The translations under genes were made by a program, and so were the position numbers. Below the pieces are notes generated by a model that saw only the letters and a program-made list of their open reading frames with translations, was not told where the DNA came from and did not search any database. This document shows, piece by piece, positions 10,903-35,327 of a stretch of 64,000 nt of DNA. The stretch is taken from assembly GCA_000004695.1 (NCBI GenBank), contig CM000153.2, forward strand, positions 1,568,001-1,632,000, read 5' to 3'. Within the stretch, counting starts at the first letter, position 1. Each line of letters opens with the position of its first letter. Source of the stretch: Dictyostelium discoideum. Its lineage: Eukaryota.

Positions 10903-11882
10903 AGAAAAAAAAAATAAAATTTAAAAAAAAAGTTGTTGATTAATTTTTATTTTTTCGATTCCTAAATATCTTATGGATTCAGTGAAGGAAAAAAAAAAAT
11001 TGTGAAAAAAAAAAAAAAAAAAAAAAATGTTTTTTAATTAATAGGACAACCCTGAAGATTAACGAATAATGTTGGCTCGAATGTTTTTTTTTTTTGTTAA
11101 AATTATTTTATAAAAACAACCGGCCTAAGTGCTTATTTAATATGATATCACAAATGATTTTGATTTTCTTTTCTTTCTTTTTTTTTTATTTTATAGTTGG
11201 TGGATGGTCTGAAAAAAAGTTTATGATTTTTTTTTTTTAAAAAATTTATTTTTTATTTTTATTTTTTTTTTATTTTTTTTTTTTGGACACGAGGGATGTG
11301 TGACTTTTCAATTTCTAAAAGTTTTTTTTTTTTTTTGTCAAAATATCTTTTTAAATTTGGTTTGTTGTTACATTGAAACTTTTTTGATGATACTGGTGAT
11401 CGGAGAGATTTTATAGATTTCAATTCACCGAACAAAAAACATTAACTGAAAATAGATCTATTCATTCTTTTTATAATAATCAATAGAAAAAAAAAAAAAA
11501 AAAAAAATGAATAAATAAAAAAAAAAAAACAAATTTTAAAAATAAAATTAATTAATTAATTAATTATACAACAGATTTTTTTTTTTTCCACTTTTAAAAT
11601 ATCAAAGTCCCAAAAAGTTTTTTTTTTTTTTTTTTTTTTTTTAATTTTTTGTGAATGGGCCTTTTTGTAAATCAACCAATATTGGGGCAAACATCGGTTT
11701 TTTTGGGAATTTCGGTTATTTTAAATTGTTATCGACAAATGCTTTTGATTTCTCCATTTCACAATTTTTTTTTCTCAATTTAATAAACACCGAAAACAAT
11801 GAAATTTATTTGGTTTGGATTTTGGATAAGGCACCCTCACAGGACTATCATTTTTTTATTTTTTTTTTTTTTTCAGATAATA

Positions 11883-11932
<50 letters not shown>

Positions 11933-12530
11933 CCAAAAGTCAAAAAAATATCGCTTCAACCCAAAAAGTTAACTGAATTTGTAACAATTATATTAAAAAG
12001 CCCTTTAAAAAAAAGGCTTTTTGATTTCTTTTTTTTTTTTTTTTATAATTATTTTTTTTAATTAATTAGTTTTTTTTTTTTTGACCAAGTTTTATTTCAA
12101 TTCATTTAAAAACCATAAACGATATCTAATTATCCAATCATATTGTTATTTTTATTATTATTATTATTATTATTTTATTTTTTTTAATTTTTTAGAAATA
12201 CATATCATATTTTTTATAAAAAAAAAAAAAAAATTAATTAGTTTTGAGATTATTATTTTTTTTTTTTTTTAAACAATTTTAAATAACTAAGAAAAAATGA
12301 TAAAAATTATAAAAATCAATCTCTTCTTTACTTTAAAAGAAAAGCAAATTTACAAAATTTTTCCTTTTTTCTAACAATTTTAAAAATACACAACTATTTA
12401 AACAAAAAGTTAACTTTTTCCCACTTTTTAAAGTTAGAAAATTACTTTTTTTTTTATTATTATTATTTTTTATTTTTTTTTTTATTATTAAGATTAATGA
12501 TTTACATAAAATTTTATTTATTTATTTTAA

Positions 12531-21108: not shown

Positions 21109-21190
21109 CGACATCGGCAGGGTTCGAACCTGCGCCTCCTAGGAGATTTGATTTCAAGTCAAACGCGTTAGACCACTTCGCTACGATGTC
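21109..21190 (-). tRNA. tRNA-Ser (anticodon UGA), 82 nt, with a long variable arm
   Basis: Reverse complement: GACATCG TA GCGA AGTGGTCTAA CGCG TTTGA CTTGAAA TCAAA TCTCCTAGGAGGCGC AGGTT CGAACCC TGCCGATGTC G. It has a 7-bp acceptor stem, a D-loop with GG, an anticodon loop cT-TGA-Aa, a class-II variable arm (CUCCUAGGAGG), a T-loop GGTTCGAAC and a T5 terminator just 3'. The two overlapping ORF-track entries (21036..21224 +, 21077..21295 -) are artefacts. Confidence 0.85.
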
Positions 21191-24573: not shown

Positions 24574-25039
24574 TCTATTATTTTATATATTTCATCTGAA
24601 ATAAAATTTAAATTTATTCATCTTTTTTTTTTTTTTTTCCCACACCAAAAACAAATAAAAACACACACATTTTAAAAAAAAAATAATAATAAAATAAATT
24701 AAAATTAATTAAAAAAAAAAAAAAAAAAAAAAAAAATTTTTTTTTTTTTTTTTTTTTTAAATTCAATTTTCCAACTTATTAAAATAAGATAGTCCTTTAT
24801 TATTTTTCCCATTTTTTCAAACAATAAAAGTTTTGTGTGCACTTTTTTTTTTTTTTTTTTTTATTTTTTAAAATATTTCTCTTTTGTCCAAACAAAAAAA
24901 AAAAAAAAACAATACAATATTTTGTTATATGTATGTAAAATAAAAAAAAGTTTGTTACTAAATTGGAGAGGTGAAGAAAGAAGTGTAAATAAAATTATAA
25001 AAGGAAAGAAATAAAATAATAATAAAATAAAATAAATAA

Positions 25040-25541
25040 ATGGCAGCAGAATTACCATTTTATATTGCTTCATCAGTTGAAGAGTTGGTGAAAAAACATG
25101 TGGAAGGTGTTGAAGTCGATAAAAACTATTCAATTTTTCATTATTTATCAACTTGTAATAATTTAGTAAAACAAGCAGATATTTATAAGTCTGAAGGTGA
25201 TATTGAAAGAACTTATATTTATTCATTAAGATTTTGCATGTAAGTTTTTAATAAACAATATATAAAAACTATAAATTTAATTACATTATATTTCACATAC
25301 ACAATACATTATCATTTCAGAACATTTATAAATATTTATACTAAAATTCATAATAATAGTTTAATTTTTGAAAAGTTACAAAAACATCCAGATTTCAATA
25401 AAGAATCATTTACAAAATCAAGAAATGAAATAAAAAGAAAAGCAGAATTGAAATTAAAAGAATTAGAAGGTTTAAAAGAAACTCTTAAAAAAGGTTATGA
25501 AAGAATACAACATAAAAAAGAAGAAGAAAGAAAAGTATATT

Positions 25542-28770: not shown

Positions 28771-29278
28771 TTTTATAAATTATATTATTATTAATGTTAT
28801 TATTTAAATAGTAGTGTACAATTTGATATTAAATAAAATAATGAATTTGATATTAAATAAAATAATGAAAATTTTAATTTCAAAAAAAAAAAAAAATTAA
28901 TAAAAAAAAAAAAATTAAAAAAAATAAAAAATTTTGGAAAATAAAAAAAATAAAAAATAAAAAAATGGTATATTTTTTATGATTTTCTAAAAAGGGAATA
29001 TCAAAATAAAATAAAATAGGTAATTAATTTTTTTATTAAACTCCATTTTGTTTAGTAAATAATATATAATATAAAAATAAACAAGTATTTTTTTTTTTTT
29101 TTTTATTTTGTTAAACAAAATAAAAGCGAGAAACGAATGAAATTTTATTTTTTCGACTTTTTTTTTTTTTTCATTTTTTTAATTTTTATATTTTTTATTT
29201 TTTTTTTATTTTATTTTTTTTTTTTTTTGATTGATCATATTCTTATTTTTGTGTAAATATTAAAAAAACGAGAAGAAA

Positions 29279-29511
29279 ATGAATAGAGGATTTAGTTTTT
29301 CGACAAAAGTGGCAACATCTTTAAATAGATGTAATAATAGAAGTAATAATATATCACAATCTGTATCATATAATTTTATAAATAAACCAACAACTACAAC
29401 ATCATCAACAACTTCAGCATCAACCACTTCTCAACCATCTTTTTCATTACCAACCTCTTGCAATTCAAATTCGCCTCAATCAAATTTAAATAGTTTTAGA
29501 ACAAAGTCACA
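29279..29511 (+). CDS. Probable 5' exon of an unidentified gene (S/T/N-rich N-terminus); downstream exons not resolved
   Basis: ORF MNRGFSFSTKVATSLNRCNNRSNN... ends at a good GTAAAT donor (29512). A downstream in-frame segment (about 29597..29680, TISKFSSNLLGTALFEFQAFLID) is followed by a GTATGT donor, but no acceptor giving a consistent third exon could be found. Confidence 0.25.
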
Positions 29512-29566: not shown

Positions 29567-30185
29567 AAATTAACTCATTTTTACCACTTTTATCAAAATT
29601 ATTAGAACAATTAGTAAATTTAGTTCAAATTTATTAGGTACAGCTTTATTCGAATTTCAAGCTTTTCTCATTGATGGTATGTGTTTTTTTTTTGAAAAAA
29701 AAAAAAAAAAAAAAATTTAAAAAAAAAAAAAATTTAATAGAATTTTTTTACTGATACTAATAATAGATACCTAATATTAAAAATAATAATAATTATTTTT
29801 ACAGATGGTAGCTAATTTGTTTATTTTTTTAAAAAAAAAAAAAAAAATATATAAATAAATTTTAAAAAGTTTTAAAAAAAAAAAAAAAAAAAAAAAAATT
29901 TGGTTCCTATGCAATTTTGGATTTTTTGTTCAATTTCTAAATCCATATAGTTATAATTGTTATTATTATTTTTTATTAATTTTATATTAAAAATGTTATA
30001 TGATTTTCAATTTTCGGAAATAATAAAAAAAAAAATATAATTAATTTTATTTTTTTTTTTAAAAAATATATTTTTCCTTAAAGGTTAAAATTGTCAAATA
30101 ATTTTAAACCATATAAATTAAATAAAAAAAAAAAAAATTATAATATTCATTTCATTTAAAAAATATTATTTATTCACAAAAAATT

Positions 30186-30452
30186 ATGACAATCTTTGGT
30201 AAATATTTCATTTTTTTAATTTATTTAAATTTAACAAATGTATAAAATTTTTTCACTTAAATTTTTTTTTAAGATTCAATTGCTTTAATTTCAAAATCAT
30301 CAAAAAGTGGTCTCACTTCTGGTAATACTACCTCAAAATTAAATGGTATAACTGTTGGTGGTAATAATGTATCCAGTGTTAATTGTGGTGGATGTGGAGG
30401 TTATACTAACAATGAACCTTCATTGTATGGAGGTAATTGTGGATGTAACTAA
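30186..30452 (+). CDS. Small Gly/Cys/Ser-rich protein (63 aa) resembling the Dictyostelium HssA/SigN-type small-protein family
   Basis: Two exons: 30186..30198 (MTIF plus 1 nt), a GTAAAT donor, a 75-nt AT-rich intron, acceptor AG at 30272-30273, then 30274..30452. The product is MTIFDSIALISKSSKSGLTSGNTTSKLNGITVGGNNVSSVNCGGCGGYTNNEPSLYGGNCGCN. A tiny first exon ending just after MTIF/L and a C-terminal CGGCGG...GNCGC pattern are what I recall for that family. Confidence 0.5.
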
Positions 30453-31005
30453 GTTAAAAATTATTATTTTTTTTTTAAAATTCAAATAAATAAATAAAAA
30501 AAAAAAGTTAATCCACCATACCATAATTTATTTTTTTTTTTAAAAAAAAAAAAAATGTTTTTATTATGAAATTATTTTGTTTCAAAAAGGACTCAAAGAG
30601 GTCTGGTAACTACCATTTCTTAATGTTAAAAATAATTAAAAAAACCAAAATGATTCAATTTCCTAGGTCTTAACTTTTGTTGTTTTTTTAGGAAAATTTC
30701 ATTTTGTATTAGGACACACCAAAAATAGAATTTTTTTTATTTTTAAATTTTTTTGTTTTTTTATTTTTATTTTTTGTTTTTTGTTTTTTTAAAAATTTAT
30801 CTGAAAAAAAAAAAAATTAAAAAAAAAAAATATATATTTGGTGTAATGCTGTGGGTTATATAATAAAAAAAAAAAAAAAAAAAAAAAAATCTTTTGAAAA
30901 ATAATTTATTGTTGTTTTTTTATTTTTGAATATCTTTGCTAAAAAAAAAAGATAAATTTATTTTTTTTAAGAAAATACCCTGGTATTTACAAATATGTGC
31001 AAAGA

Positions 31006-31149
31006 ATTCTTGATTGGTAGTGTTGAATTTTGTGGAGTGAAAAACGGGGAAAATTTTTTTTTTTTTTTGATTTTTTTTTTTTTTTTTTTGATTTTTTTTT
31101 GTGTATGGTAAATGATTGGCTATGACCAGGTTCAATCTTTGTTCCATTT
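31006..31149. promoter_or_regulatory. Conserved non-coding modules A (ttcttgattggtagtgttgaa...ggagtg) and B (aatgattggctatgaccaggttcaatctttgttccattt) about 500-600 bp upstream of FNIP gene copy 1
   Basis: Both modules recur with about 75% identity upstream of the paralogous FNIP gene copy 2. They are the only GC-containing islands in otherwise poly(A)/poly(T) promoter DNA. Confidence 0.4.
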
Positions 31150-31180
31150 TTATTTTTTTTGTTTTTTTTAATTGTTTTTT

Positions 31181-31244
<64 letters not shown>

Positions 31245-31638
31245 ATAAATTCCAAATATTTATTAAATTATTTTTTATCTACAAAATATTATTTTTTAGT
31301 CTCTCTAATAATTATTTTAATTATTTTAATTTTAATTTTTTTTTTTTAACCCCTTTTTTTTATATTTTAAATTTATTTGAATAAAAAGGTATATTATTTT
31401 TTTTATTTTTATTTTATTATTTATTATATTTTTTTTATTTTTCCCATTATTAAATCATTTAAAAAAAAAAATATTCTAATTATTTAAATTTTCTTTTTTT
31501 AATAAAAAAATATAAAAAAAAAAAACTACAAAACTAAAAAATTATATAATATTAAAAATTAATAAATTAATAATAAATCAATAAATAAATAAATAAATTA
31601 ATAAATAAATAAATATAAATTTTAAATTCCTCTAAAAG

Positions 31639-32013
31639 ATGATTGCTCAACCACTTTCAATTTTAACATTAAACATTGACGATAAATTCAATCAACCAAT
31701 TGTCATCGGTGATTTACAAGAAAGTATTACTTCATTGTCATTGGGATTCGAATTTAACCAAACCATCGCACCTGGTGCCCTCCCAAACAATCTTAGATCA
31801 TTATCATTAGGCCGTAATTTCAATCAAACTATCACTCCAGGTATTTTACCAAATAGTTTAAAAACTTTAACAATTTTAAATCCAGATTTTAACCAAGAAT
31901 TAATTACAGAAGGTTCAATTCCACCATCTTTAGAACGTATTTATTGTGTCTCTGAAAATAAAGAATTTATAAATAATCCAGGACTTTCAAAATTCATTCA
32001 AATTATTAAATAA
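31639..32013 (+). CDS. FNIP-repeat protein (124 aa), copy 1 of a tandem pair
   Basis: Single exon. It has three FNIP repeats (FNQPIVIGDLQESITSLSLGFEFNQTIAPGALPNNLRSLSLGRNFNQTITPGILPNSLKTLTIL), a repeat class typical of Dictyostelium. Six amino acids differ from copy 2. Confidence 0.7.
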   Translation: MIAQPLSILTLNIDDKFNQPIVIGDLQESITSLSLGFEFNQTIAPGALPNNLRSLSLGRNFNQTITPGILPNSLKTLTILNPDFNQELITEGSIPPSLERIYCVSENKEFINNPGLSKFIQIIK

Positions 32014-32501
32014 TTATAATAATTATTATTATTCATTATATTCATATTCAATAAAACAAACTGTAAATAATATATTGTAAATAAATCAATTAGACCATAA
32101 AAATAAAAATAAAAATAAAGATAAAAAAAAAAAATAATAATAAAAAAAAAAAAAAAATTTAAATTCAATAAGAACACATAATAGTTTAATATTATTAATT
32201 AATTAATAAATAATAAAATTTAAAAGGTTTAAAAAAAATATATCAAAATTTTTTCTTTTTTATATTAGAAATTAAATTATTTATTTTTTATTTATTCTTT
32301 TGTTTTTTTTAATAGTAGATAGTTTTATTTTTGTCATAATTGGTTTTTAAACCCTATATGTTTAAAAAAAATTAAAAACGGTGTATTTTAGAATCCTAAA
32401 TATCTATCCATTAGCTTTCATTCTCTAAATTTAATTTCTATTTTCTAACCATGTTTTTATAAACCCTGGGATTTCCTTATATATTATTTGTGTTTTTATT
32501 T

Positions 32502-32536
<35 letters not shown>

Positions 32537-32560
32537 AAAAAAAAAAAAAAAAACCTAAAA

Positions 32561-32843
32561 TTTCAAATGTCTGTTTAATTCACACTTCTTGATTGTTTGA
32601 TAGAACGGAGTGTTTTTTAGAAAAAAAAAAATCAAAAAAAAAAAAAATCAAAAAAAAACATAAAATTTCGAATGTTTGTTTAATTCACACTTCTTGATTG
32701 CTTAATGGAACGGAGTGTAAAAAATTATTTTTTATTTTTTAATTTTTTTTTTTTTATTTTATAATTTTTTTTATTTTTTTTTTTTTTTGTTTAATAAAAC
32801 AGAATGATTGTTTGGCAATGACCCAGGTTTTGTCATTCCATTT
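32561..32843. promoter_or_regulatory. Upstream modules of FNIP copy 2: module A tandemly duplicated (32561..32611 and 32666..32717, about 105-bp period) plus module B (32803..32843)
   Basis: The A-like units are ttcaaatgtctgtttaattcacacttcttgattgtttgatagaacggagtg and tcgaatgtttgtttaattcacacttcttgattgcttaatggaacggagtg. Module B is aatgattgtttggcaatgacccaggttttgtcattccattt. Confidence 0.4.
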
Positions 32844-33110
32844 AATTTATTTTTCATTTTTATAATATTTAATTTTATTTTCTTTTTAGCTTTTTTTTCT
32901 TATTTTTTTAACTATAAAATAAAAATTAAATTTCATAATTTTATATATTAAATTTTTTTTTATTATTATCTTAAAAATACCAATTATCTCTCTCTCTATA
33001 TATATTAAAAATATTTTATTCTTTTAATTCTATTTTATAAATTTATTTCAAAATAAAAAAGTATGTTTTTAATTTATTTTATTTAATTATAATTAAAAAA
33101 AAAGTTTACT

Positions 33111-33154
<44 letters not shown>

Positions 33155-33232
33155 CTTCATATTTTTAATATTCTATAATTCTATAAATAATAATTATTTT
33201 TAAACAATATTATTCTCCTTGGTTTCTAAAAG

Positions 33233-33607
33233 ATGATTGCTCAACCACCATCAATTTTAACATTAAATATTGACGATAAATTCAATCAACCAATTGTTGT
33301 TGGCGATTTACAAGAAAGTATTACTTCATTGTCATTGGGATTCGAATTTAATCAAACCATTGCACCTGGTGCATTACCAAACAATCTTAGATCATTATCA
33401 TTAGGTCGTAATTTCAATCAAACTATCACTCCAGGTATTTTACCAAATAGTTTAAAAACTTTAACAATTTTAAATCCAGATTTTAATCAAGAATTAATTA
33501 CAGAAGGTTCAATTCCACCATCTTTAGAACGTATTTACTGTGTCTCTGAAAATAAAGAATTTATAAATAATCCAAGTCTTTCAAAATTCATTCAAATTAT
33601 TAAATAA
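33233..33607 (+). CDS. FNIP-repeat protein (124 aa), copy 2 of a tandem pair
   Basis: Single exon. About 95% nucleotide identity to 31639..32013 (MIAQPPSILTLNIDDKFNQPIVVGDLQ...). Confidence 0.7.
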   Translation: MIAQPPSILTLNIDDKFNQPIVVGDLQESITSLSLGFEFNQTIAPGALPNNLRSLSLGRNFNQTITPGILPNSLKTLTILNPDFNQELITEGSIPPSLERIYCVSENKEFINNPSLSKFIQIIK

Positions 33608-33803
33608 TTAAAATTTCTTTCATTTTTCGTTTACAAAAAAAAAAAAAAACTGTACAAAAATAAATTATCAAATAAAAAAAAAAAAACAAAAAGCATTTGT
33701 TATTAAATAAAACACTGAATGTATTTTTGTAATCTTTGGTTTATTTGTTTATTTATTTATTTATTTATTTATTTATTATTTATTTTTTTAAATTCTAGAA
33801 CAT

Positions 33804-33840
<37 letters not shown>

Positions 33841-33904
33841 CTTTTCCCAAAAAAAAAAAAAAAAATTATTATCTTAATGGTGGAATAATTGATAATTTTC
33901 CTAT

Positions 33905-34990
33905 TTAATTTTCAGATAGTGGATGTTGTGGGTCACAGGTGTTGAGCTTGAGGATGCTTCTTGTTGTTCTGTTGTTAGTGTACGTTCCCCTCCATTAGAA
34001 TTTTGGGCTCTAAAAGCTTTTAAATCTGATCTGTATCTTATTTTTTTCATTTTTATGTTTGCTCCATCCATTTTACTTGTGAATTACCACCTGTCTCCTC
34101 CCCCTCAAATTCAATATCACATGAAATTGAATCATAATTTAAAAATGAACAATTATATAGTTGTTCATTTGAAAAACAATAAACACTTGAATTATCAGAT
34201 GTGTTTGGAATGAAATTTTCACCATTAATTATAAATTGACCACTTGTGGAATTAAAAACTGGATACTTATTTATTGGGGCTAGGATGGTGATATATCAAC
34301 TTTAAGACCTACTGATGTTTCATCACATACTATTAAAGAAGTTCACTTGATCCATATTCATGTTTTAAAGGGAATAAAAAGTAGTTATTTTCAAATATTA
34401 TTTCTTCAGTACGTGTTGTTTGATTTTCAATTGACATCGAAACTTGATTTCTACCACAACCTTTTGGAATAGGGAATGTGTATGTACGAGTTGGAAACTC
34501 TTTTGAATTTGAATTATCGATACCTATAATAGTTGTATTGTCCATTAATGTAAGAGTTGGTAAACTACTATAATTGAATAAATTTATATTGTATAATGTA
34601 AAGTTTACAAATTGACCAAGTACTGATGGTGATAATGGTGATGATTTAACAAAGAATGATAAATCAATTTGAACAATATTTGATTTTTTACCATTTACAA
34701 TTATATATAATTTTGATTTTTTAATTTGATTTAATGGTGTAAATGATAAAGTGTTTGTTTATCATTTACAATTGTCGTTAAATTAAATTGTTGAATATCA
34801 TCAATATATACTTGAGTTGATTCATTCGTACCCTAGACAGTCACCAATTTATTTAACTTCTCTTAGAGGAAGAATAAAATCAGAAATAAAAGGTACATCA
34901 AATGAAAATAATAATTTATTATCATTTACAATCCATTTATTGATACATTAACTTGTAAACCAATAGAATCATAATTGACTAATTAAATTA
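33905..34990 (-). pseudogene. Decayed gene fragment with IPT/TIG-like motifs; pseudogene with frameshifts and stops
   Basis: GC content is elevated over the intergenic background. Minus-strand reading gives long ORF pieces in three different frames separated by stops and frameshifts. The pieces include ...SNIVQIDLSFFVKSSPLSPSVLGQFVNFTLYNI...LPTLTLMDNTTIIGIDNSNSKEFPTRTYTFPIPKGCGRNQVSMSIENQTTRT... (the track's 70-aa ORF at 34333..34545 is part of this) and ...PVFNSTSGQFIINGENFIPNTSDNSSVYCFSNEQLYNCSFLNYDSISCDIEFEGEETGG. The G-x-(I/L)-x-I-x-G-x-NF with C...L.C pattern resembles IPT/TIG domains such as those of the tgr/Tiger cell-surface proteins. Confidence 0.4.
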
Positions 34991-35327
34991 TAATAATAGA
35001 TTATTAAAAAAAGAAAAATTTAGTGTTATGTGTGTGGTAATTAAATTCTTAATTATTTTTGGCTTTCAATGATTATAAAATCACACACAGTAATAAAGGA
35101 AATTATTGTGTGTTTAATAAATTCATGGGGATTTTTTTGTGTATTTTTTAATTTCCAATTGTAAAAGAATAAAGATTAAAAAACTATAATAAAATTTAAA
35201 AAGAAATTTACAAAACAAATCTTGTTCAATATTTTTCTTTTTTTTTTTTTTTTTTTTTTTTTTATCAATTATTTAATGATTGTGTTTTTATTTTTTTATT
35301 TTATTATATTATATTTTTATTATATTT

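Follow-up and report, generated by a model that had tools for sequence, protein, structure and literature searches.

The G/C-containing islands found upstream of two tandemly arranged FNIP-repeat genes of Dictyostelium discoideum, here termed modules 0, A and B, probably make up the upstream regulatory region of an RNA polymerase II (Pol II) promoter, in which short protein-binding sites are clustered. The region would have been duplicated in tandem with its gene, with divergent losses in the two promoters and gene conversion in the coding sequences. The modules are conserved above neutral expectation and, as promoter modules do, keep the same place and strand with respect to a TATA-like box downstream of them, and their position and conservation suggest that they would bind transcription factors.

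Tandem FNIP genes and their upstream modules

The pair is formed by two small FNIP-repeat genes, DDB_G0284109 (copy 1) and DDB_G0284111 (copy 2), coding for 124 aa each and separated by 1,219 bp. All positions refer to the whole 64-kb stretch of D. discoideum DNA that was analysed (the window; Table 1). Both ORFs belong to Pfam family FNIP (PF05725), with E=3e-24 and 7.7e-39, respectively (bit scores 85.3 and 132; gathering cutoff 21). The coding sequences differ at 17/375 nt (95.5% identity) and the proteins at 3 of the 124 aa, an identity that makes standard RNA-seq mapping ambiguous between copies. Comparison of copy 1 with its orthologues gave a dN/dS of ~0.06–0.1. No further FNIP gene was detected in the window by tblastn, and our literature search found no paper naming either gene. 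The preliminary description of this locus, reporting two ~95% identical 124-aa FNIP ORFs lying 1.2 kb apart in the same orientation, both preceded by modules A and B, and a tandem repetition of module A with a 105-bp period in copy 2, was confirmed on each of these points.

Table 1. Features of the two FNIP gene copies (positions in the window)
Feature	Position	Strand	Sequence or evidence
Module 0, copy 1	30977..30983	+	ACCCTGG within TACCCTGGTATTT
Module A, copy 1	31004..31049	+	alignment of 14 A units; nhmmer E=1.2e-8
Module B, copy 1	31111..31149	+	AATGATTGGCTATGACCAGGTTCAATCTTTGTTCCATTT; alignment of 10 B units; nhmmer E=2.2e-13
TATA box TATAAA, copy 1	31244..31249	+	117 nt downstream of B core; conserved column block in 10-sequence alignment
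Probable 5′UTR intron, copy 1	31389..31638	+	predicted; 250 nt; GTATAT donor, TTCTAAT branch-like site 31474-31480, AG abutting ATG
FNIP gene copy 1 (DDB_G0284109)	31639..32013	+	124 aa; ORF and Pfam
Module 0, copy 2	32463..32469	+	ACCCTGG within AAACCCTGGGATTT
Tandem duplication with two module A units, copy 2	32516..32718	+	TRF: period 105, 1.9 copies, 88% matches, score 329
Module A2a, copy 2	32566..32612	+	inside 105-bp tandem
Module A2b, copy 2	32671..32717	+	inside 105-bp tandem
Module B, copy 2	32803..32843	+	AATGATTGTTTGGCAATGACCCAGGTTTTGTCATTCCATTT; alignment of 10 B units; nhmmer E=1.3e-12
TATA box TATAAAA, copy 2	32913..32919	+	89 nt downstream of B core
Probable 5′UTR intron, copy 2	33061..33232	+	predicted; 172 nt; GTATGT donor, TACTAAT 33107-33113, AG|ATG
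FNIP gene copy 2 (DDB_G0284111)	33233..33607	+	124 aa; ORF and Pfam

The ACC(C)WGG motif of module 0 is related to the module B core and precedes module A in 10/10 gene copies examined; the sequence ACCCWGG occurs three times in the window, always inside the two FNIP promoters. In copy 1, module A is composed of the core TTCTTGATTGG, followed by TTGAATTTTGT, GGAGTG and AAAAACGGGG, and lacks the 5′ element AATGTCTGTTTAATTCACAC; its 3′ element is found at this single place in the window. The two units of copy 2, A2a and A2b, each contain AATGTYTGTTTAATTCACAC, TTCTTGATTG and GAACGGAGTG, both being devoid of TTGAATTWTGT and AAAAACGGGG. A separate repeat search returned the tandem of copy 2 as 98 nt at 89% identity with a spacing of 105, and the same 105-bp tandem is present in copy 2 of D. 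citrinum and in two further strains of the D. discoideum group. Module B of copy 1 shares exact matches of 18–19 nt with D. firmibasis and D. dimigraforme.

Searches with nhmmer profiles retrieved no other copy of module A or B from the window and five fetched orthologous loci, and the idea of a dispersed repeat or mobile element was rejected. Two ORFs run across the modules, one on the minus strand (30920-31255) and one on the plus strand (31116-31349); both are artefacts created by homopolymer runs, which translate as poly-K and poly-F. The mini-ORF ATG TCT GTT TAA in module A was likewise rejected as coding, its start being lost in one strain (ATC).

Core promoter, probable exon 1 and probable 5′UTR intron

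In all 10 copies the core of module B lies 70–117 nt upstream of a TATA-like box, the modules are always on the gene strand and their order is 0-A-B. The distance from the TATA box to the splice donor is 121–174 nt, and the intron length (112–253 nt) is more variable than the promoter distances. In copy 1 the conserved blocks TATCTACAAA and TCTCTCTA come after the TATA box, in what is probably the start region and a non-coding exon that extends to 31388, while in copy 2 the probable non-coding exon 1 follows the TATA box and ends at 33060. Transcription would probably start, in both copies, in the region downstream of the TATA box. Two wild strains have a degenerate version of the copy 1 TATA-like box (ACTAAAT and CATAAAT).

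An unannotated 5′UTR intron, together with the non-coding exon 1, probably precedes the ATG of each FNIP gene. The donor, the YTCTAAT motif and the AG|ATG junction are kept in the alignment of all 10 copies. The intron of copy 1 has an AG-free stretch of 248 nt before its terminal AG, AGs being 71 nt apart on average, and that of copy 2 an AG-free stretch of 126 nt beginning just 5′ of TACTAAT. The combination of a GTATGT-type donor, YTCTAAT, an AG-free zone and AG|ATG places the promoter 260–400 bp upstream of the ATG. The modules themselves lie ~390–650 bp from the ATG, since the probable exon 1 and 5′UTR intron intervene, and the distance of 500–600 bp proposed in the preliminary description is corrected accordingly. 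In the assemblies consulted the coding range alone is listed for these genes and the intron is unannotated in all of them; the gene models are here corrected by adding a probable non-coding first exon and a probable 5′UTR intron.

Conservation across copies and species

Orthologous loci were compared from D. citrinum, which also has the gene pair, and from D. firmibasis and D. dimigraforme, which have single genes. The upstream modules are present, in unchanged order, in the orthologues of all three species. Coding dS values with respect to D. discoideum are 0.30–0.49 for D. citrinum, 0.47–0.68 for D. dimigraforme and 0.71–0.84 for D. firmibasis.

Exact G/C-containing matches of 10–31 nt between species fall in modules A and B. 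Copy 2 of D. discoideum has 87 nt in such matches with D. dimigraforme (Markov control: mean 2.4, maximum 30) and 147 nt with copy 2 of D. citrinum (control: mean 2.8, maximum 27); overall, cross-species matches are 5–50 times the Markov control, at dS of 0.3–0.84. Exact G/C-containing matches between the D. discoideum paralogues alone amount to 20 nt, not above the control (mean 6.2, maximum 40), and the statistical weight therefore rests on the cross-species comparisons. When the paralogous upstream regions were globally aligned and divided into 50-nt bins, 9/18 G/C positions matched in the module A bin and 13/17 in the module B bin, with 0–6 G/C matches in each of the other bins, where the spacer is scrambled. 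The earlier proposal that the islands are conserved, and hence functional, is supported, more strongly by the comparison across species than by that between paralogues. The opposite scenario, that of a very recent and uniformly similar duplication, has to be rejected, the spacer being dissimilar and the modules being found in four species.

Unit A2a of D. discoideum copy 2 matches D. dimigraforme exactly over 31 nt. With regard to the promoter reading, a block of 31 nt that is perfect at dS ~0.5 is long for one binding site, so that several abutting sites or another constraint would be needed.

Similar conserved islands, of 13–22 nt and common to D. firmibasis or D. dimigraforme, were found in two neighbouring divergent promoters, and none in a convergent 3′-3′ spacer nearby, taken as control. 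In the extremely AT-rich Dictyostelium genome, G/C-containing islands of 10–30 nt upstream of genes are shown here to be reliable marks of constrained regulatory DNA; the neighbouring promoters share the signal and the 3′-3′ spacer does not. The only differences from a second D. discoideum assembly are one A/C substitution in a poly(A) tract and four indels in homopolymer runs, and this comparison is uninformative for constraint. A phylogenetically footprinted promoter map is at hand for two uncharacterised genes.

Duplication, promoter divergence and gene conversion

The ancestral promoter would have had the layout that D. firmibasis and D. dimigraforme retain in their single-copy genes, in which ACC(C)WGG is followed, after a spacer of ~45–65 nt, by module A. 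This module would have comprised AATGTCTGTTTAATTCACAC, TTCTTGATTGC, a variable stretch, (T)TGAATTATGTGG, GGAGTG and AAAAACGGG, and would have been separated by a T-rich spacer from module B (GGCTATGACCAGGTTCAATC..TTCCATTT). A T-run would have come next and then TATAAA, which the two single-copy species have ~75–91 nt past the B core, followed by the start region with the two blocks named above for copy 1, the non-coding exon 1 and the 5′UTR intron with its AG abutting the ATG.

A unit of ~1.6 kb, from the promoter to the poly(A) region, would have been duplicated in tandem before the split between D. discoideum and D. citrinum. Upstream exact matches pair by copy (141 nt between the two copies 1 and 147 nt between the two copies 2 of D. 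discoideum and D. citrinum; 47 and 29 nt in the cross pairs), and coding differences pair by species (17 and 10 nt within species; 31–40 between D. discoideum AX4 and D. citrinum). Coding dS is, correspondingly, 0.17 and 0.065 within species versus 0.3–0.5 between species. Judging from the sequences compared, the duplication and the 105-bp tandem, both of which D. citrinum has, are old, and the coding sequences are alike through gene conversion and not through youth; conversion would keep the two coding sequences near-identical inside each species.

The promoters would have diverged over the same time by the loss of the 5′ element of module A in copy 1 and of two 3′ sub-elements, TTGAATTWTGT and AAAAACGGGG, in copy 2, where the remaining A unit would have been doubled by an internal tandem duplication of ~105 bp. 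At present the 5′ element of A is found in copy 2 only, twice, and GGAGTG-AAAAACGGGG in copy 1 only, both being present in the single-copy outgroups. This is the complementary loss of cis-elements in duplicates that characterises regulatory subfunctionalisation (duplication-degeneration-complementation). Although the reading is an uncommon one, the pair may illustrate promoter subfunctionalisation in clean, natural form, beside gene conversion confined to the coding sequence, and the two copies may differ in expression. Simple decay of one promoter is a possible alternative. With gene-converted coding sequences and complementary losses in the promoters, the pair offers a compact test case for regulatory subfunctionalisation.

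Alternative explanations for the modules

It is unlikely that a small ncRNA gene or hairpin precursor, formed by module A with or without B, lies 5′ of the FNIP gene and was duplicated along with it. Perfectly conserved stretches of 18–31 nt, long for one binding site, would suit such a gene, as would the T-runs after some units and the start of the A unit, AAATGTC, loosely similar to the "TGTG box" (AAATGTG) found in Class I RNA genes (PMC7919456). Moreover, the full A unit of D. dimigraforme folds into an extended hairpin with CUGUUU/AAACGG and CACUUC/GGAGUG stems (-18.9 kcal/mol, z = -2.7). This fold is, however, the exception among single-sequence folds of both strands, 11/12 of the z-scores being unremarkable (0.04 in D. 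firmibasis, from +1.0 to -1.2 in the D. discoideum units). The RNAalifold consensus has 0 pairs, and the candidate hairpin shows 0 compensatory pairs, with 67% of cells pairing, fewer than after shuffling (mean 72%). No compensation accompanies the stem substitutions (CACCCC, CACCTA and CACTAC against an invariant GGAGTG), and each copy of D. discoideum and D. citrinum lacks one half of the outer stem, and is conserved nonetheless. No Rfam match was obtained over the modules, either with the gathering score as threshold or even at E<=10, the sole hit of the Rfam 15 scan of the window being a tRNA-Ser at 21109-21190. The DUSE motif [AT]CCCA[CT]AA is absent between 30400 and 33800, and its count in the whole window (9) compares with 10.4 expected. 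We consider it quite improbable, too, that the ancestral module A (~75–80 nt, with the two stems given above) was a lineage-specific hairpin RNA, miRNA-precursor-like or promoter-associated, regulating the FNIP gene, whose halves were split between the D. discoideum and D. citrinum paralogues and survived for a reason at the DNA level. The preliminary description had left the choice between a promoter element and a small ncRNA: the former is sustained by the fixed distance of 70–117 nt from the TATA-like box, as well as by the likeness to the neighbouring islands, and the latter is disfavoured by the lack of Rfam match, DUSE, consensus fold and compensatory pairs.

The B-box consensus is GGTTCRANNCC, and Dictyostelium tRNA genes carry extra downstream B boxes. 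In module B, GGTTCAATC resembles this consensus, and ACGGAGTGG is loosely like an A box, so that modules B and A could be viewed as a TFIIIC/Pol III-type element, either an "extra TFIIIC" B-box-like site or a type-2 gene with internal A and B boxes. This is very unlikely, given that 4/10 copies (GGTTTAATC, GGTTTTGTC) have a T at the fifth position, where the essential C56 would be, that the terminal CC is absent, that the invariant GACC(C)AGG falls outside any B box and that long T-runs, which are Pol III terminators, separate A from B; ARAGORN found no tRNA over the modules, nor did the Rfam tRNA model give any match there. Hardly any more credible is that the islands are functionless, slow-decaying remnants of a duplicated segment or mobile element, with G/C kept by chance. 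The paralogue-only matches, which do not exceed the Markov control, would agree with it, but the blocks are kept in four species at dS 0.3–0.84, collinear and at a fixed distance from the TATA box, within a spacer that is otherwise scrambled, and extra copies are missing from ~64 kb and flanks. A Pol II promoter region is the reading we retain.

Comparison with known systems

To our knowledge, no nameable factor site corresponds to the invariant blocks TGTYTGTTTAATTCACAC, TTCTTGATTG and GACC(C)AGGTT. One candidate considered was the G-box of GBF, with the consensus (T/G)G(T/G)G(T/G)G(T/G) and most often found as paired half-sites (PMC2257962). A GBF-like sub-element reads TGTGGAG in D. discoideum and D. 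citrinum and TGTGGTG in D. dimigraforme, and is missing from copy 2; its identity with the G-box was rejected, as the match is perfect in D. firmibasis only (TGTGGGG), with one mismatch elsewhere.

Class I RNA genes of Dictyostelium, in which a DUSE precedes the RNA start or TGTG box by ~60 nt and is followed by the TGTG box and by a ~60-nt stem RNA (PMC7919456), likewise consist of short lineage-specific conserved non-coding sequence in AT-rich intergenic DNA, with an AAATGT-type motif and a CCC-containing motif ~45–100 nt before it. On the contrary, the FNIP modules have no DUSE, covarying terminal stem, 11-nt Class I motif or Rfam match. The sigN prestalk genes are tandem duplicates for which GBF-binding G-boxes and CA-rich elements have been described (PMC2257962). 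Their promoters, like those of the FNIP pair, have short G/C boxes in AT-rich spacer, upstream of the core promoter, which are alignable and common to duplicated small genes, whereas the module sequences of the FNIP genes differ. The pattern as a whole resembles duplication-degeneration-complementation with concerted evolution, in that the outgroups have the full element set, the paralogues different subsets and the coding sequences are homogenised; subfunctionalisation is defined by partitioned expression, and the likeness of the FNIP pair to it is one of sequence pattern. The system is ordinary in kind and, with no pointer to a new kind of molecular system, provides a tidy evolutionary example.

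The FNIP gene pair and its upstream modules

The products of the two window ORFs are identical to the D. discoideum AX4 proteins DDB_G0284109 (copy 1) and DDB_G0284111 (copy 2). Both ORFs match the FNIP repeat (Pfam PF05725; 85 and 132 bits, cutoff 21), are spaced 1,219 bp apart on the same strand and differ at 17/375 nt and 3/124 aa, no further FNIP gene being found in the 64-kb window. A second D. discoideum assembly (GCA_054883475.1) has the same pair, on a chromosome of 5.58 Mb, and over 30100-33800 four homopolymer-run indels and one A/C substitution are all that set it apart from the window. A protein search retrieved one 90% cluster of 12 members, confined to the D. discoideum group.

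The preliminary description of this pair, with modules A and B upstream and a 105-bp tandem of module A in copy 2, was confirmed by coordinates, alignment and Tandem Repeats Finder (32516-32718, period 105, 1.9 copies, 88% matches); a separate repeat search returned 98 nt at 89% identity. When the two upstream regions were aligned globally, the match was poor outside the modules, and matched G/C positions per 50-nt bin clustered in the A bin (9/18) and the B bin (13/17), with 0-6 in the other bins, so that the intergenic region as a whole is not equally similar. Exact matches between the two D. discoideum paralogues alone did not rise above a Markov control, and the case for constraint would thus be weak from the window alone.

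Features of the FNIP locus and its neighbourhood (window coordinates unless a locus is named)
Feature	Position	Strand	Remarks
FNIP copy 1 ORF	31639-32013	+	124 aa
FNIP copy 2 ORF	33233-33607	+	124 aa
Module A, copy 1	31004-31049		
Module A, copy 2	32566-32612, 32671-32717		units A2a and A2b
Module B, copy 1	31111-31149		
Module B, copy 2	32803-32843		
TATA-like box	31244-31249 (copy 1), 32913-32919 (copy 2)		TATAAA in AX4
Predicted 5'UTR intron, copy 1	31389-31638	+	GTATGT-type donor, T(T/A)CTAAT, AG-free zone, AG abutting ATG
Predicted 5'UTR intron, copy 2	33061-33232	+	GTATGT donor, T(T/A)CTAAT, AG-free zone, AG abutting ATG
Differences from GCA_054883475.1 across 3.7 kb	31183-31198, 32529-32538, 32774, 33113-33123		poly(T)/poly(A) run lengths, one A/C substitution in poly(A)
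Paralogue coding pairs compared	31639-32013 vs 33233-33607; L005 10001-10375 vs 11575-11949		L005, D. citrinum
Neighbouring divergent promoters	~24597-25055, ~28787-29294 (L001 2959-3417, 7149-7656)		islands e.g. TTTCCCATTTTTTCAAACAATA, AAAAACACACACA, ATTGGAGAGGTGA, TTAAAAAAACGAGAA

Conservation across species

The loci compared were those of D. firmibasis (L003) and D. dimigraforme (L004), with one gene each, and of D. citrinum (L005), a wild D. discoideum strain (L006) and D. cf. discoideum (L007), each with a pair; upstream synteny was identical in all of them. Modules A and B lie upstream of every FNIP copy examined, with constant strand and order, despite a synonymous divergence (coding dS) from D. 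discoideum of 0.30-0.49 for D. citrinum, 0.47-0.68 for D. dimigraforme and 0.71-0.84 for D. firmibasis (dN/dS ~0.06-0.1). The total length of exact G/C-containing matches lies far above that in controls: for D. discoideum copy 2 it is 87 nt with D. dimigraforme (control mean 2.4, maximum 30), a 31-mer AAATGTCTGTTTAATTCACACTTCTTGATTG included, and 147 nt with D. citrinum copy 2 (control mean 2.8). A recent, uniformly similar duplication, the scenario that had been set against a selective signal, is thus rejected, the modules being kept across species at dS 0.30-0.84.

When the same exact-match analysis was run on neighbouring intergenic regions, two divergent promoters contained conserved G/C-containing islands of 13-22 nt shared with D. 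firmibasis or D. dimigraforme, and a convergent 3'-3' spacer (L001 5778-5953) contained none. Islands like A and B are thus how promoter DNA under constraint normally looks in these genomes, and those of the FNIP genes, at the long end of this range (31 nt), are the same in kind.

Directly 3' of copy 2, on the minus strand, a TgrO1-like Ig-domain coding remnant with many stop codons was observed (33890-35010; Pfam PF24612, E=3.6e-13). Tgr-like genes are called at the matching position in the wild strain, and downstream synteny of the pair varies between species, which places the pair next to a tgr region of variable content.

Promoter anatomy and a probable 5'UTR intron

Alignments of 14 A units, 10 B units and 10 complete promoters resolved the conserved upstream region into a mosaic of blocks. 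Module 0 reads ACC(C)WGG(G/T)ATTT, and all three ACCCWGG sites of the window fall within the two FNIP promoters. In single-copy species module A is composed of AATGTCTGTTTAATTCACAC, TTCTTGATTGC, a variable 8-12 nt, (T)TGAATTATGTGG, GGAGTG and AAAAACGGG, and is separated by a T-rich spacer from module B, whose invariant core GGC(T/A)(A/G)TGACC(C)AGGTT is followed by (C/T)AATC and TTCCATTT. Then come a T-run, the TATA-like box, TATCTATTAAA / TTATCTACAAA and TCTCTCTA, downstream of which AAATTTATTT..AAAAG followed by GTATGT provides a canonical splice-donor context.

An invariant, branch-site-like T(T/A)CTAAT lies 3' of the donor, and an AG directly abuts the ATG in 10/10 copies. The AG-free stretch before this terminal AG measures 55-251 nt in nine of the ten copies (mean AG spacing of these regions, 47-91 nt), starting in most at the donor or just 5' of the CTAAT site; donor, T(T/A)CTAAT and AG-free zone are kept in four species (10 copies). 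A non-coding exon 1 followed by a 5'UTR intron, with its acceptor AG abutting the ATG, is the probable structure at the 5' end of both FNIP genes; neither feature is annotated in any of the assemblies compared, and the gene-model correction is a useful one. Distances are 70-117 nt from B to TATA and 121-174 nt from TATA to donor, which fit a promoter, with intron length more variable (112-253 nt). The modules are probably promoter-proximal although 390-650 bp from the ATG, an apparently odd distance that the inferred exon and intron would explain.

Upstream of module 0, more G/C-containing islands were observed at 30560-30860, e.g. GGTCTGGTA (shared with D. firmibasis) and TTTTGTATTAGGACA (shared with D. 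citrinum copy 1), which may act either as distal promoter elements or as 3' signals for the preceding 160-aa gene, whose end is at 30452. The 3' flank of copy 1 (32040-32100; L005 10420-10450) contains a conserved ACTGTAAATAATATA.TGTAAATAAATCAATTAG, with an 18-nt exact match to D. citrinum, and probably represents the polyadenylation region; copy 2 is likewise followed by ACTGTA(A/C)AAATAA.

Promoter elements or RNA gene

The modules had been proposed to act either as a promoter element or as a small ncRNA. No Rfam family matched the modules, even with the threshold relaxed to E<=10, and DUSE, a motif found in the promoters of Dictyostelium ncRNA genes (PMC7919456), is absent from 30400-33800. 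The sole Rfam or ARAGORN match in the window is a tRNA-Ser(UGA) gene at 21109-21190, minus strand. Single-sequence folds of both strands were unremarkable (D. firmibasis A unit, z = 0.04) apart from the D. dimigraforme A unit (z = -2.7), and RNAalifold predicted no consensus pairs across units. When the D. dimigraforme hairpin (CUGUUU/AAACGG and CACUUC/GGAGUG stems) was imposed on the 14-unit alignment, 0 pairs were changed on both sides, the paired fraction of cells (67%) fell short of the mean of shuffled controls (72%), and the 5' arm showed substitutions without compensation; moreover, each D. discoideum paralogue is without one outer-stem arm, yet still conserved. The RNA-gene reading is thus not supported by the sequences compared, whereas cross-species conservation and the distances to TATA and donor support the modules as predicted promoter elements.

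The GGTTCAATC of module B resembles a Pol III B box, but the critical C is T in 4/10 copies, and invariant bases outside the box and T-runs between A and B also argue against it. The GBF G-box consensus, as quoted in PMC2257962, is satisfied in D. firmibasis only. A dispersed repeat is rejected, as nhmmer found no additional module copy in the window or flanks.

Duplication age, gene conversion and complementary loss

Upstream regions cluster by copy, with 141 nt in exact matches between the copies 1 of D. discoideum and D. citrinum and 147 nt between the copies 2 (cross pairs, 47 and 29 nt), and the 105-bp module A tandem is carried by copy 2 in all D. discoideum-group strains as well as in D. 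citrinum. The gene duplication and the internal tandem are thus both older than the split of the two species. Coding sequences cluster instead by species: the two D. discoideum copies differ at 17 nt (dS 0.17) and the two D. citrinum copies at 10 (dS 0.065), whereas comparing D. discoideum AX4 with D. citrinum gives 31-40 nt differences (dS 0.3-0.5). Given the older duplication, the 95% coding identity indicates gene conversion acting on the coding region only, and not youth of the duplication.

With the single-copy D. firmibasis and D. dimigraforme as reference, copy 1 has lost the 5' element of module A, in both D. discoideum and D. citrinum; TGTYTGTTTAATTCACAC occurs in the window at 32568 and 32673 only. 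Copy 2 is without TTGAATTWTGT and AAAAACGGGG, GGAGTG-AAAAACGGGG occurring in the window at 31034 only, and of its two A units A2b, adjoining B, retains the ancestral GATTGCTTG and A2a is more diverged. Such complementary loss is the signature expected of regulatory subfunctionalisation, of which the pair is a candidate case. The FNIP pair adds an example to a known type of feature, and is a neat case of old duplication combined with gene conversion and complementary promoter decay.
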